From: Eledone cirrhosa
Lineage: Eukaryota
DNA: 64,000 nucleotides
Reading direction: 5' to 3'
Assembly: GCA_964016885.1 (NCBI GenBank)
Contig: OZ024746.1
Coordinates: forward strand, 51,708,001-51,772,000
A program made the position numbers and the translations under genes. Position 1 is the stretch's first letter. Each line of letters begins with the position of its first letter. Shown piece after piece: positions 34,221-52,719 of the stretch. The notes beneath the pieces were generated by a model that worked only from the letters and a program-made list of their open reading frames with translations, had not been told where the DNA came from and made no database searches.

Positions 34221-34412
34221 GTTTTAATATAGATGAGATTCTACAGGACTAGAACTGTTTCATTCTTTAGAAATCATCAGGAATCCTGATGATTTCTAAA
34301 GAAGGAAACAGTTCTAGTCCTGTATAATCTCATCTATATTAAAACATTTATACTCTGCTATGTATTGAGTACCTAACTTACTGTGGTTACCTCCGATTCA
34401 ACCCGGAATAAC
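34221..34412. mobile_element. Tiny palindromic element made of two head-to-head HHR cores plus a tail
   Basis: 125-bp palindrome at 34221-34345 with CTGATGA..GAAAcagttc on both strands. Relatives at 51820-51998, 52392-52583 and 61932-61990. Confidence 0.75.
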
Positions 34413-35303
34413 GTATATATATATATATATATATATATATATATATATATATATATATATATATGAGTTAATCAAGGTTCACATCTAAGAATGAGTTTTA
34501 CACACATACATATGTGTGCATATGTATTTGTATGTATGTGTCTGTGCATATGTATGTATATGTATGTGTATATATGTGTATATATGTATATATGTATATA
34601 TGTGTGTGTGTGTATGTATATGTGTATGTGTATAGGTATATGTATATGTGTGTGTGTGTATGTATTTATTTTTACGTATGTGTATGTGCAATTGTGTCTA
34701 TTGCTTACCACGTGTGTTTGTTCATTTATTTGTTGCCTGTATCGCTGACAACTTTATAATAATTTTTATATTCATTGTTATTCTTATGTGACGGTATTTT
34801 TATTATTATATTTTTCTTATAATTATTTGTGCGTGTTCGTATGTAGGTGTGTGTACATATATCTATATTTGTGCATGCGTATGCATGCGTGTATACATGT
34901 GTGTATGTATGTGTGTGTATGTACGTGTGTTTATATATGTATGATTGTTTGTATGTATGTATATATATATATATATATATATATATGCATGTGTGTGTGT
35001 GTGTGCGTGTTTGTGTATTTGTGTGTATGTGTATGTATGGATATGTTGATATATATGTGTGTATGTATGTATGTGCATATGTATGTGTATGTATATATAT
35101 ATATATATATATACATATATATGTGTGTGTGTGTATGTGTGCGTGTATATGTGTGTGTATGTATATATGTGTGTGTGTATGTAATTGTGTGTGTGTGTAC
35201 ATGTGTGTTTATTTTTCCTTTCCTTCTTCCTTTTCCAGCCTCACTTTCATATAGATTATATTTTTGTTTTAAAATCCAATGTCAATAAATACACCAGGAT
35301 TTG

Positions 35304-35346
35304 TTCATTCTGATGATTGAAAGCAAAATTTGTTTGCTTTTAAGAA
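35304..35346 (+). ncRNA. Hammerhead-like motif lacking helix II
   Basis: CTGATGA tt GAAA gcaaa-atttg-tttgc TT; helix I is weak. Confidence 0.5.
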
Positions 35347-35689
35347 ACCACTGGTAAATGAAATAATTGCCTAATGTTGTTTATTACATAACTATATATA
35401 TATATATATATATATACGAGCTGAAGGTAAAACAATTGTTCTCGGTATGGTGAACTAACTGTTGTGTTGCCACTTCTCTCCATCTCTCTCTCTCTATATA
35501 TATATATATATATATACACACATACACACAACAGACACGTACACACACACACACACATATATATATATATATATATATATATATATGTATGTAGACATAT
35601 ATATATATATATATATATACACACACACATTTATATATATACATATACACACGTATATATATGGGCCTTCCACTTTTATTTCACATTAT

Positions 35690-35851
35690 AGGGTAGGATA
35701 TGCTTTCCAGCATAGTTACGTCCCTTTACAATCTGAGTTCAATTCCCGCCGAGGTTTACTTTGCCTTTCATCCTTACGGGGTCGATAAAATAAAGTACCA
35801 GTAATGTACTGGGATAATTGCTGGCCTTGTGCCAAAAGTAGAAACAATTAT
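35690..35851 (+). mobile_element. Octopus-type tRNA-derived SINE
   Basis: gagttcaattcccgccgagg..ttgcctttcatccttacggggtcgataaaataaagtaccag; five copies in the window. Confidence 0.85.
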
Positions 35852-35914
35852 ATACATGTCTGCGTATATTTTAATTATTTAAAAATTACTTTTAACATGA
35901 TTTTTTTAAGTGAA

Positions 35915-35943
35915 CGTGACCCTATAGGGCACGGGTGGTCTAG
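35915..35943 (+). mobile_element. Helitron-like 3' terminus
   Basis: GC hairpin cgtgaccc-tata-gggcacg, a 6-nt spacer, then CTAG followed by T. Confidence 0.5.
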
Positions 35944-35973
35944 TATTACCTAAAAATATGTGGAATCTGTGTC

Positions 35974-47770: not shown

Positions 47771-47989
47771 GGACAAAATGAAAACACACACACACATAGA
47801 ACAAACAACCAACCAACAATAAATAAATAAATAAACAAACAAATATAAATAGAAAAATAGAAAAATGAACACAAACACACACAGACACCCGGATGTGGCG
47901 CATGCGCAAACTGAGCACGCAACCCACACACAAACAAAATGGCGTAGGATAGAAGAAAGGAAAGGCACAGAAACGAAGAAAGAAATCCC

Positions 47990-48034
47990 AGTCACTGAAG
48001 AGGTCACAGAGTGTGTGACGAAAGAACTATGACT
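47990..48034 (+). ncRNA. Type I hammerhead ribozyme motif
   Basis: agtca CTGAAGA g gtcaca-gagtg-tgtgac GAAA gaaCTA tgact. Confidence 0.78.
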
Positions 48035-48624
48035 ATATATATATAAACAACTATCTGGTTGTGGAACCAACCAACCAACCAGAAATTTATAAATTTGTAA
48101 ATTTATAATATATATTAAATTAAATTGAAGTGAAAGCAACTGGTGCGTGTGTTTCTTATTGGCAACATGACCCTCCCAAAGTATAACAATATATATATAT
48201 ATTTATATATATATATATATATATATATATATATATTTATATATATATATATATATATATATATATATATATATATATATATTTATATATATATATATTT
48301 ATATATATATATATATATTTATATATATATATATATTTATATATATATATATTTAATATATACATATATATATATATATATATATATATATATATATATA
48401 TATATATATATATATATATATATATATATATATATATATTTATATATATATATTTATATATATATATTTATATATATATATATATATTTATATATATATA
48501 TATATATATATATATATATATATATATATATATATATATATATATATATATATATATATATATATTTATATATATATTTATATATATATATATATATATA
48601 TATATATATATTTATATATATATA

Positions 48625-48771
48625 TTGTTATACTTTGGGAGGGTCATGTTGCCAATAAGAAACACACGCACCAGTTGCTTATTGGCAACATGACCCTCCC
48701 AAAGTATAACAATATCGGTTTCAACACACGATTTCAGATAAAGAATCTTGCTAAACAAATTCAGAAACGAT
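48625..48771. mobile_element. Micro fold-back made only of the Neptune-like pLTR tail
   Basis: 48625-48659 is inverted at 48678-48713, followed by the distal tail. Confidence 0.8.
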
Positions 48772-51155
48772 ATATATATATATTTATATATATATATATA
48801 TATATATATATATATATATATATATATATATATATATATATATATATATATATATATATATATATATTTATATATATATATATATATATATATATATATA
48901 TATATATATATATATATATATATATATTATATATATATATATATATATATATATATATATTTATATAAATATATATATTTATATATATATATATATATAT
49001 ATATATATATATATTTATATATATATATATATATTTATATATATATATATATATATATATATTTATATATATATATATATTTATATATAATATATTTATA
49101 TATATACATAATATATATATATATATATATATATATATATATATATATATATATATATATATATATTTATATATATATATTTATATATATATATTTATAT
49201 ATATATATATATATTTATATATATATATTTATATATATATTTATATATATATATATATATATATATATATATATATATATATATTTATATATATATATAT
49301 ATATATATATATATATATATATATATATATTTATATATATATATATATATATATATATATATATATTTATATATATATATATTTATATATATATATATAT
49401 ATATATATTTATATATATATATATATTTATATATATATATATTTATATATATACATATATATATATATATATATATATATATATATATATATATATATTT
49501 ATATATGTATATATTTATATATATACATATATATATATATATATATATATATATATATATATATATATATATATATATATATATATATATATATATATAT
49601 ATATATATTTATATATATATATTTATATATATATATATATTTATATATATATATTTATATATATATATTTATATATATATATATATATATATATATATAT
49701 ATATATATTTATATATATATATATATATATATATATATATATATATATATATATATATATATATATATATATTTATATATATATTTATATATATATATAT
49801 ATATATATATATATATATATATTTATATATATATATATATATATATATATATATATATATATATATATTTATATATATATATATATATATATATATATAT
49901 ACATATTTATATATATATATATATTTATATATATATATATATATTTATATATATATATATATTTATATATATATATATATTTATATATATATATATATAT
50001 ATATATATATATATATATATATATATATATATATATATATATATATATATATATATATATATATATATATATATATATTTATATATATATATATTTATAT
50101 ATATATATTTATATATATATATATATATATATATATATATATATATATATTTATATATATATATATATATATATATATATATATATATATTTATATATAT
50201 ATATATTTATATATATATATATATATATATATATATTTATATATATATATATATTTATATATATATATATTTATATATATACATATATATATATATATAT
50301 ATATATATATATATATATATATATATATTTATGTATATATATTTATATATATATATTTATATATATATATATATTTATATATATATATTTATATATATAT
50401 ATTTATATATATATATATATATATATATATATATATATATATATATATATATATATATATATATATATTTATATATATATTTATATATATATATATATAT
50501 ATATATATATATATATATTTATATATATATATATATATATATATATATATATATATATATATATTTATATATATATATATATATATATATATATATATAT
50601 ATTTATATATATATATATATTTATATATATATATATATATTTATATATATATATATATTTATATATATATATATATTTATATATATATATATATATATAT
50701 ATATATATATACATATATATATATATATATATATATATATATATATATATATATATATATATATATTTATATATATATATATTTATATATATATATTTAT
50801 ATATATATATTTATATATATATATTTATATATATATATTTATATATATATATATATATATATATATATATATATATATATATATATATATATATTTATAT
50901 ATATATTTATATATATATATATTTATATATATATTTATATATATATTTATATATATATATATATATATATATATATATATATATATTTATATATATATTT
51001 ATATATATATATATTTATATATATATTTATATATATATATATATTTATATATATATTTATATATATATATATTTATATATATATTTATATATATATATAT
51101 TTATATATATATTTATATATATATATATATATATATATATATTTATATATATATT
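48772..51155. repeat. (TA)n/(TTTA) microsatellite tract
   Basis: Directly visible. Confidence 0.98.
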
Positions 51156-51156
51156 A

Positions 51157-51778
51157 ATGTATATATAGTGTATTTTACAATACACTGTATGCTTAATTAA
51201 AAGCATTTCGAAGACCTTATGCTATTGATTTAGAGTAGAGACAGTCTCACTTACTTTAAATTTTCAGCAAAGAGGGGAGATAAAGCTAACAGAGCTCGCT
51301 TTCGCACTTTTTGGTGCTTATCAAAGCTAACTACTCCACCTGTTTGCTGAAAATCATGAATGTTTGATTCTTATAGAATTCTAACATACAGTGTATTGCA
51401 AAATACACTATATATACATTCATATATATATCGCTATTTCAGAGCACCAATTCTAATTTTCAATTTCTGCTTGACCGGCAACCGCTCTGTATAATCAGTT
51501 CCTGATTATTACTAGAATTCTATAAGAATCAAACATTCATCATTTTCAGCAAACAGGTAGAATAGTTAGCTTTGATAAGCACCAAAAAGTGCGAAACAGA
51601 GCTCTGTCAGCTTTATCTCCCCTGTTTGCTGAAAATTTAAAGTAAGTGAGACTGTCACTACTCTAAAACAATAGCATAAGGTCTTCGAAATGCTTTTAAT
51701 TAAGCATACAGTGTATTGCAAAATACACTATATATACATTCATATATATATCGCTATTTCAGAGCACTAATTCTAATA
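51157..51778 (+). mobile_element. 320-bp HHR unit with terminal redundancy and an inverted 5' copy
   Basis: 51385-51458 is repeated at 51705-51778. 51157-51384 is an inverted copy of about 51513-51741. Confidence 0.8.
51568..51612 (+). ncRNA. Hammerhead, U3:A8 variant (mirror copy at 51284-51328, -)
   Basis: agct TTGATAA gcac-caaaaa-gtgc GAAA cagagctctGTC agct. Confidence 0.82.
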
Positions 51779-52719
51779 TATATATATATATATATATATA
51801 TTTATTTATTTATTTATTTAATATAGAAATGGCTTCTATAGGACTAGAACTATTTCATTCGAAGGAATTCACCAGGAAAGCCCCGATGATTTCCTTCGAA
51901 TGGAACAGTTCCAGTCCTGTAGAAGCCATTTCTACATTAACTATTGATACTCTGCTATGTATTGAGTACCTTACCTACTTCAGATTGAAACCGGGTTACA
52001 CATACACACATACATACATACATATATATATATATATATATATATATATATATATATATATATATATATATATATATATAAAGAATTGCATATATATATA
52101 TATATGCAATTCTTCTATTACAATTATACATTTCGTGAGTACTCCAATTACTCTTTGTTGAGTGAGTGAGAACAAACGAGACAACGGAAATCTTTTCCTA
52201 TCGTTCTGTATAACAATATATGTAGTTGTGTGTGTGTGTGTGCGTTGGCGTGTGCGTGTGTGTGTGTGTGTGCAGGTGCTGGTCAAAAGAAAAGACCAAT
52301 CAGCACCCCAAGAAAAGTAAAGAAAGTAAAATGGATAATACAATGCTTACGTCTATGAAACCATTATAATTATATATATATATATATATATAAATGGCTT
52401 CTACAGCACTAGAACTGTTTCATTCGAAGGAAATCATCAAGGCTTTCCTGATCATTTCCTTCGAATGAAACAGTTCTGGTGGTGTAGAAGTCATTTATAT
52501 ATTAATATATCAAACATTTATACTCTACTATGTATTGAGTAACCTACTGACTGCGGTTACTTCAGATTGAACTCGGGATTCACATATCTATCTATCTATA
52601 TATATATATATATATTGTTATAGTTGGGGAGGGTCATATTTGTGTAATATTGCCAGAATTAATAACAGAACACACTCACTGTTTGGTTGGTTTACGCTTT
52701 TGGATTCTGTCTTTTATAT

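Follow-up and report, generated by a model that had tools for sequence, protein, structure and literature searches.

A 64,000-nt stretch of the genome of Eledone cirrhosa (NCBI GenBank assembly GCA_964016885.1, contig OZ024746.1, positions 51,708,001 to 51,772,000 of the forward strand; hereafter the window) was analyzed for a short palindromic repeat related to the hammerhead ribozyme. Three inverted copies were found, in each of which two type I hammerhead-like arms (53-60 nt) stand head to head around a spacer of 5-7 nt and one arm carries a tail of 58-77 nt. This spacer constitutes the 5' strand of helix I, and where subfamilies differ in it, the 3' strand has changed correspondingly. What is unusual is that all junctions (3/3) lie 5-7 nt before the core, at the first stem of the ribozyme. 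The copies are probably very short 5'-inverted insertions, for which the reverse transcriptase (RT)/GIY-YIG machinery of Penelope-like elements (PLEs) used a non-palindromic type I hammerhead RNA and formed the inverted arm in the same event.

Anatomy of the inverted copies

The copies occupy positions 34221-34411 (copy 1), 51817-51999 (copy 2) and 52388-52582 (copy 3) of the window. A decayed, tail-less and non-inverted single arm, the relic, lies on the plus strand at 61932-61990 with a degenerate helix I 5' strand at 61932-61938. An earlier note on this DNA had located three palindromic copies and the relic correctly. All copies share one plan: a minus-strand arm without a tail, the spacer, a plus-strand arm and the tail. 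They and the relic are a genuine feature and not an assembly fold-back.

The tail-less arm of copy 1 (34221-34280, minus strand) has an intact type I hammerhead core with C3 at 34280, stem II and stem III; cleavage is predicted between 34242 and 34241, which makes 34241-34237 the 3' strand of helix I. The spacer at the inversion junction (34281-34285, minus strand) forms 5 bp with 34241-34237. The tail-bearing arm (34286-34345, plus strand) also has an intact core and is without the helix I 5' strand on the plus strand; it is followed by the tail of about 66 nt, present on this arm only (34346-34411, plus strand), and then by (TA)n. In copy 2, the core of the tail-less arm (51817-51875, minus strand) is substituted, the spacer (51876-51882, minus strand; 6 bp plus a bulge) reads into this arm, and two core positions are substituted in the tail-bearing arm (51883-51941, plus strand). 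Its tail of about 58 nt (51942-51999, plus strand) has a 9-nt deletion as compared to copies 1 and 3. Copy 3 consists of a tail-less arm with substituted core (52388-52440, minus strand), the outer end of which is blurred by (TA)n, a spacer that is identical in its 7 nt to that of copy 2 and reads into the tail-bearing arm (52441-52447, plus strand), a tail-bearing arm substituted at the G8 position (52448-52505, plus strand), and a tail with an approximate start (52506-52582, plus strand), followed by a microsatellite and another PLE-type 3' end.

The C3 pairs at 34280/34286, 51875/51883 and 52440/52448 define spacers of 5, 7 and 7 nt in copies 1, 2 and 3. The claim that the copies invert within about 10 nt of the core thus holds for 3/3 copies. 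Arms within a copy are identical at 54/56, 48/56 and 50/56 nt, respectively, and global alignments of whole units gave 144-148 identities over 183-195 nt. Inversion is found in three of the four insertions, the relic being the exception, and the one-sided tail in all three inverted copies. Upstream of the core, each of the four insertions retains at most about 15 nt; in the relic, the TA run stops about 15 nt upstream of the core. Tandem arrangement, by which retrozymes are recognized, occurred in none of the four insertions in the window.

Hammerhead core and helix I

A hammerhead core was defined as CUGANGA ... GAAA ... UH with correct spacing, as is usual and in accordance with PMC4209133. 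The arms show the order core, 12-nt stem II region, GAAA, 14-nt stem III region and UH site, with an extra nucleotide after A9. An intact core was present in two of the seven arms, both of copy 1, so that the literal CTGATGA reported for all copies is confined to these two; the other five arms carry one to three substitutions at positions differing among arms, as decay predicts. Stem II retains 3 bp although its loop in copy 1 differs completely from that in copies 2/3, and helix III consists of a 4-bp stem with an 8-nt loop. In the left arm of copy 2 only, positions 51839 and 51852, which form the helix III pair 15.2-16.2, are both changed (C-G to T-A); this may be coincidence or a variant of the source.

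The copy 1 spacer reads GATTC on the minus strand and forms five Watson-Crick pairs with the first five bases past the cleavage site. The spacer GGCTTTC of copies 2 (minus strand) and 3 (plus strand) forms six Watson-Crick pairs and one bulge. The probability that a random spacer of this length pairs equally well, in one orientation or the other, is 0.002-0.003. The earlier claim that the 5' strand of helix I is largely or wholly missing is contradicted by this result, the spacer being that strand. When spacers were swapped across subfamilies (copy 1 against copies 2/3), three pairs remained. The spacer is native sequence rather than a copy of the 3' strand, because the non-inverted relic carries a decayed version of the same strand (0 strict pairs). 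All three helices are therefore present in just one arm of each copy, the other arm being without the helix I 5' strand; a complete helix I is combined with an intact core only on the minus strand of copy 1. In two of three copies (1 and 2) the spacer reads into the tail-less arm, and in copy 3 into the tail-bearing arm.

The change of helix I on both strands and the constancy of stem II under a changed loop point to selection on the folded ribozyme. A transcript through any copy would fold into a hairpin of -80 to -101 kcal/mol, as compared to -3.6 kcal/mol for the ribozyme fold of copy 1, and ribozyme pair probabilities in the full transcript were 0.000. Since the palindrome prevents the ribozyme fold, the two-sided helix I difference, one covarying pair, presumably arose in a non-palindromic source. 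As judged from sequence, the arms are likely of hammerhead ancestry, and cleavage is predicted.

Grouping of the arms

The six arms of the inverted copies were aligned over 60 columns, and tree topologies were compared by approximately unbiased (AU) tests on the first 56 columns. Up to column 54, each informative column divides the arms by copy; of columns 56, 59 and 60, which lie at the (TA)n edge, two fail to do so. The by-copy tree was best (AU P = 0.95). The earlier note had proposed to ask whether left arms cluster with left arms or with their own partner: they group with their own partner, and the three left-with-left trees were rejected (P ≤ 4.2e-7). Two trees mixing the arms of copies 2 and 3 were not rejected (AU P = 0.08 and 0.09), because only two columns separate these copies. 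A rigid, long-lived palindrome as the mobile unit, one of the two explanations offered before, is thus not supported by the arm alignment; by-copy grouping is still compatible with a junction that is inherited while the arms are made anew. Given that each subfamily has about one copy, the same grouping could also stem from young masters whose arms are identical, or from frequent conversion between arms.

Target sites and search for a parent

TA runs of 19-43 nt flank all three copies on both sides, and the relic has runs of 13 and 6 nt; (TA)n is very abundant in the window, which weakens the target-site test. A profile built from the seven arms recovered the same seven in the window at E ≤ 1.8e-17, with the next match at E = 0.079; as the profile was trained on these arms, the result shows only that the window holds no further close copy.

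A possible very diverged relative of an arm was seen in sense orientation at 33970-34040, about 750 nt downstream of a decayed PLE-like frame (31580-33225). Its summed pairwise alignment score of 274 exceeded that of the best control (240), all 2258 control windows and all 1000 shuffles. It was missing from both profile searches (E ≤ 10 in one, the top 20 matches listed in the other) and was not accepted, having been chosen post hoc and having broken helices.

Other Penelope-type insertions in the window

The layout of inverted arms with a one-sided tail recurs in the window at sizes from 150 bp to 10.5 kb. The largest is a PLE-like insertion at 8585-19090 with microsatellite-rich inverted arms of 4172 nt, 98.3% identical, one of which carries a tail of about 130 nt. 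The arms have hammerhead-like motifs at 8924 (minus strand) and 18885 (plus strand); helix I of these motifs is 10 bp long and their stem II region 115 nt. The insertion contains a 786-aa RT/GIY-YIG-like frame (12572-14929, minus strand), which matched no Pfam or NCBIfam family and had 39 homologues, none of them named. We take this frame to be of PLE type on the basis of RT and GIY-YIG motifs, of 35% identity to a frame at 32458 and of a weak match to the frame at 46202 (E = 0.004). The latter (46202-47770) contains Pfam RVT_1, below the cut-off, followed by GIY-YIG.

One PLE family including the 46202-47770 frame is represented at 29960-30870, 39060-40025, 46202-48192 and 48622-48775, with inverted junctions at differing places. 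One junction, a hairpin with a 3-nt loop at about 39774, lies inside the endonuclease-coding region; the 48622-48775 member is a 150-bp palindrome with arms of about 50 nt, an 18-nt spacer and a one-sided tail, and is without a hammerhead. Related 3' ends were seen at 6877-7053, 44740-44872 and 52612-52719.

Nine other inverted inserts were surveyed, most cores being read by eye. The distance from core to junction was 22, 27, 59, 178, 185, 199, 522 and 3957 nt, and one insert is without a core; a junction within 10 nt of the core was found in none of the nine. The inserts at 59050-59694 and 62082-62317, the 27087/45512 pair, 46202-48192 and the microsatellite palindromes, in which no core or inverted partner was recognized, were left out of this survey. 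A strict hammerhead scan gave 9 sites and a relaxed scan 6; the cores of five families (B, F, G, H and L) escaped the relaxed scan and were identified by eye. A motif match at 46060 was dropped as false. Since tiny hairpin inserts arise without a ribozyme and 0/9 other junctions adjoin a core, fold-back at the ribozyme is not a general rule.

Further elements were noted in the window. Three head-to-tail repeats of about 465 nt, 98-99% identical and with hammerhead-like motifs on the minus strand (42856, 43321 and 43790), occupy 42696-44005; they resemble a retrozyme array with a 31-nt inverted end, and U and U flank stem II here also. An inverted insert at 51160-51782 adjoins copy 2 on the left and has its own hammerhead-like motif with a palindromic helix III; its longer arm exceeds one unit, like a partial tandem. 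More head-to-head inserts with degenerate hammerhead-like cores lie at 53092-53750, 54906-55700 and 62565-63545. The last two are related and have a tail in common, and a repeat resembling a short interspersed nuclear element (SINE) is nested between the arms of 62565-63545. Single-arm copies of another hammerhead, 95% identical, with intact core and a helix I of 6-7 bp, are found at 29628-29738 and 35283-35395 and have only about 30 nt in common upstream of the core. Isolated cores occur at 22039 (plus strand) and 36543 (minus strand).

Frames of the long interspersed nuclear element type lie at 2100-5233 (plus strand; Pfam AP-endonuclease and RT) and 24048-25025 (minus strand; no Pfam match). 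A dispersed SINE-like repeat of about 190 nt is present at 35700-35857, 56565-56754, 59050-59694 and 62846-63037; at 59050-59694 two copies form a 645-nt palindrome. A tRNA-like match was found at 57992-58047, with a related copy at 60413-60603.

Discussion

We infer every enzymatic step of the insertion, and the reason for its fixed end point, as follows. The source RNA would be a PLE pseudo-long terminal repeat (pseudo-LTR) or 3' end, or a short non-autonomous PLE derivative. The endonuclease would nick a (TA)n tract; RT would then initiate internally on the RNA, at either of two sites that lie 3' of the ribozyme and bound the optional tail, pass through the ribozyme and end 5-7 nt beyond the core in the helix I 5' strand. 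The inverted second copy would be made in the same event, either by cDNA fold-back on a closure of 1-2 bp or by joining of two cDNAs primed from both sides of the cut. The palindrome would then be the product of each insertion and not the replicating form, and the copies would be dead ends, because RNA reading through them should fold into one long hairpin excluding the ribozyme.

The usable template most likely begins at about the end point, with a strong stop as second choice. A template beginning near helix I is favored because both arms end there and the relic starts about 15 nt upstream. A stall is disfavored because, on reaching this point, RT would have unwound the ribozyme and left it behind, and because the other families do not stop there. 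Accordingly, the earlier suggestion that RT stalls or folds back at the ribozyme can be kept as far as fold-back or inversion in each insertion is concerned; as a general stall rule it fails, the junction lying past the whole core and the nine other inserts showing nothing similar. A stop or RNA end at helix I that is specific to this family is possible.

Several observations weigh against this interpretation. Rfam hammerhead models scored below the gathering score, the best being Hammerhead_3 on copy 1 with 20.3 bits against 48.5, and the scan of copy 3 listed no hammerhead model. Copies 1 and 3 were scanned singly and copy 2 within a scan of the whole window, in which no family reached the gathering score for the element among the 150 of 275 matches listed; these 150 comprised microRNA models on microsatellites and one tRNA-like match. 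The base of stem II is U.U or U.G and not the G10.1-C11.1 pair stressed in PMC4209133, the ribozyme helices have a probability of 0.004-0.05 (ViennaRNA) even in the best arm folded in isolation, and the helix I covariation amounts to one two-sided change between two subfamilies. There are just three inverted copies, two of which (2 and 3) lie 570 nt apart and share the same junction. Fold-back of one cDNA predicts the spacer polarity of copy 3 only; for copies 1 and 2, two-ended priming, trimming or later loop inversion would be needed. The tails measure 58-77 nt, as compared to 30-40 bp in published PLE insertions (PMC8557442). Finally, self-BLAST and two nhmmer profiles revealed no parent open reading frame (ORF), tandem array, or longer or ORF-linked copy in the window. 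The copies would work like PLE insertions; because the window shows no parent, their link to PLEs, and to any specific PLE, is suggested by anatomy and neighbors and not by sequence descent.

A tentative alternative is that a minimal non-autonomous PLE passenger of about 130 nt exists, whose RNA starts at the helix I 5' strand or arrests RT there, so that nearly every insertion becomes palindromic; in the boldest form of this idea, the hairpin would re-template itself by cDNA snap-back. It is rather unlikely that the junction is simply inherited, that is, that a palindromic master is transcribed, RT copies one arm plus the loop, and the cDNA snaps back at the existing hairpin, giving daughters that keep the junction and have both arms copied from one. 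Such inheritance would account for the by-copy grouping of arms and for the fact that copies 2 and 3 have the same junction of 7 nt, and self-priming has been proposed for PLEs (PMC3846280). On the other hand, the helix I covariation between copy 1 and copies 2/3 needs a foldable non-palindromic source and hence at least two independent origins near the same point, the relic has no inverted arm, and inheritance alone leaves the opposite spacer polarity of copies 2 and 3 unexplained. It is also unlikely that a long PLE or retrozyme RNA of the ordinary kind was truncated at random at its 5' end and that the junctions match by accident, in a small sample in which copies 2 and 3 are non-independent. 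Short inverted arms are common in the window, for example at 43975 (31 nt) and 48622 (about 50 nt); in two other families the end lies 22 and 27 nt from the core, and the test for independence of copies 2 and 3 is weak (P = 0.08-0.09). However, if stops were uniform over an assumed range of 100 nt, three would fall within 3 nt with a probability of 0.002 and two with 0.05; over an assumed 30 nt the values are 0.02 and 0.16. Junction clustering exceeds uniform truncation if the copies are independent, and if copies 2 and 3 count as one, the 0.05 figure for the 100-nt range applies. Moreover, both arms stop at this point in all three copies, and the end of the relic is nearby.

That the rigid palindrome itself moves, either as a full-length RNA copy or as a DNA element resembling a miniature inverted-repeat transposable element (MITE) with long terminal inverted repeats and TA insertion, is highly improbable. 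The constant overall size and junction, the TA flanks, and the tail on the same arm in plus orientation in all three copies would fit such a unit, but the left-with-left trees were rejected, copies 2 and 3 differ in the polarity of the spacer relative to the tail, and the arms contain a covarying ribozyme fold that the palindrome itself prevents. Unlike in a MITE, the conserved tail extends beyond the inverted repeat at one end. A microRNA-type hairpin gene or an assembly artefact is barely credible: many Rfam microRNA models match the hairpin, but all 68 and 44 matches in the two copies scanned are below gathering scores and reflect the long stem only, and chimeric reads would not give three diverged copies with arms differing at 2-8 of 56 sites.

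The layout of an inverted 5'-truncated copy with a palindromic junction, a one-sided tail and (TA)n is already published for PLEs, a correspondence that the earlier note had missed. Inverted pseudo-LTRs with palindromes at the head-to-head junction and an optional tail were described together with the self-priming proposal (Arkhipova and colleagues, PMC3846280), and Craig and colleagues (PMC8557442) reported PLE insertions that are biased to (TA)n, contain a 5'-truncated copy in inverted orientation and have a tail of 30-40 bp at either end; both papers call the way in which PLEs form inverted 5' copies unresolved. Our copies share with inverted endonuclease-positive (EN+) PLE insertions and solo pseudo-LTRs the head-to-head 5' copy, the palindromic junction, the one-arm tail, (TA)n and the hammerhead near the 3' end, the published tails lying at either end. 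In contrast to the insertions described there, both arms are only about 55-60 nt long, the junction keeps a fixed place in 3/3 copies, 5-7 nt before the core, and there is no ORF-bearing parent in the window.

Cervera and de la Pena (PMC4209133) ascribed dual hammerheads on opposite strands, 100-700 bp apart, to truncated PLEs and noted that the intron of D. virilis Penelope terminates at the 5' end of helix I. As in the PLE-associated type I/minimal hammerheads of that report, including those of Schistosoma mansoni, our arms have type I topology, an extra nucleotide after A9, a short helix I (5-6 bp) and two motifs on opposite strands. They differ from the motifs given there in that the cores are 5-7 nt apart, helix III is not minimal and G10.1-C11.1 is missing.

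Retrozymes are head-to-tail tandem repeats of about 200-400 nt with circular RNA, and solo copies are described (PMC7229834; bioRxiv 10.64898/2026.07.22.740005). Like the metazoan non-LTR retrozymes in these sources, the copies are short and non-coding, carry a type I hammerhead and may depend on PLEs, as was proposed for retrozymes; unlike them, they are head-to-head with about 130 nt per long arm, and their transcript would be a hairpin. The word "inverted" is absent from the main text of PMC7229834.

A model that works alike for nicking and for RT starts bounding the tail is Poseidon of Anolis (PAc), which in vitro nicks and extends both strands with AT-rich nicking (Frangieh and colleagues, PMC11167929). 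Two internal RT start sites downstream of the hammerhead bound the PAc tail, and hammerhead mutants left insertion unaltered; the parts of that work considered here do not address inverted copies or their junctions. The portions of PMC12910113 and PMC13282606 consulted added nothing on palindromic hammerheads. In a literature search, with supplements outside its scope and weak as evidence of absence, neither this family nor any junction fixed at helix I was seen to be described.

As objects, the copies are ordinary repeat debris; their hairpins are possible sources of double-stranded RNA and of false-positive microRNA or MITE calls. Their value is that of a test case for the formation of inverted PLE copies. 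A family with a junction pinned to one ribozyme strand and with a readable spacer polarity could discriminate between models, provided that its copies are many. If the fixed end point holds genome-wide, spacer polarity together with the side of the tail would separate self-priming from two-ended priming.

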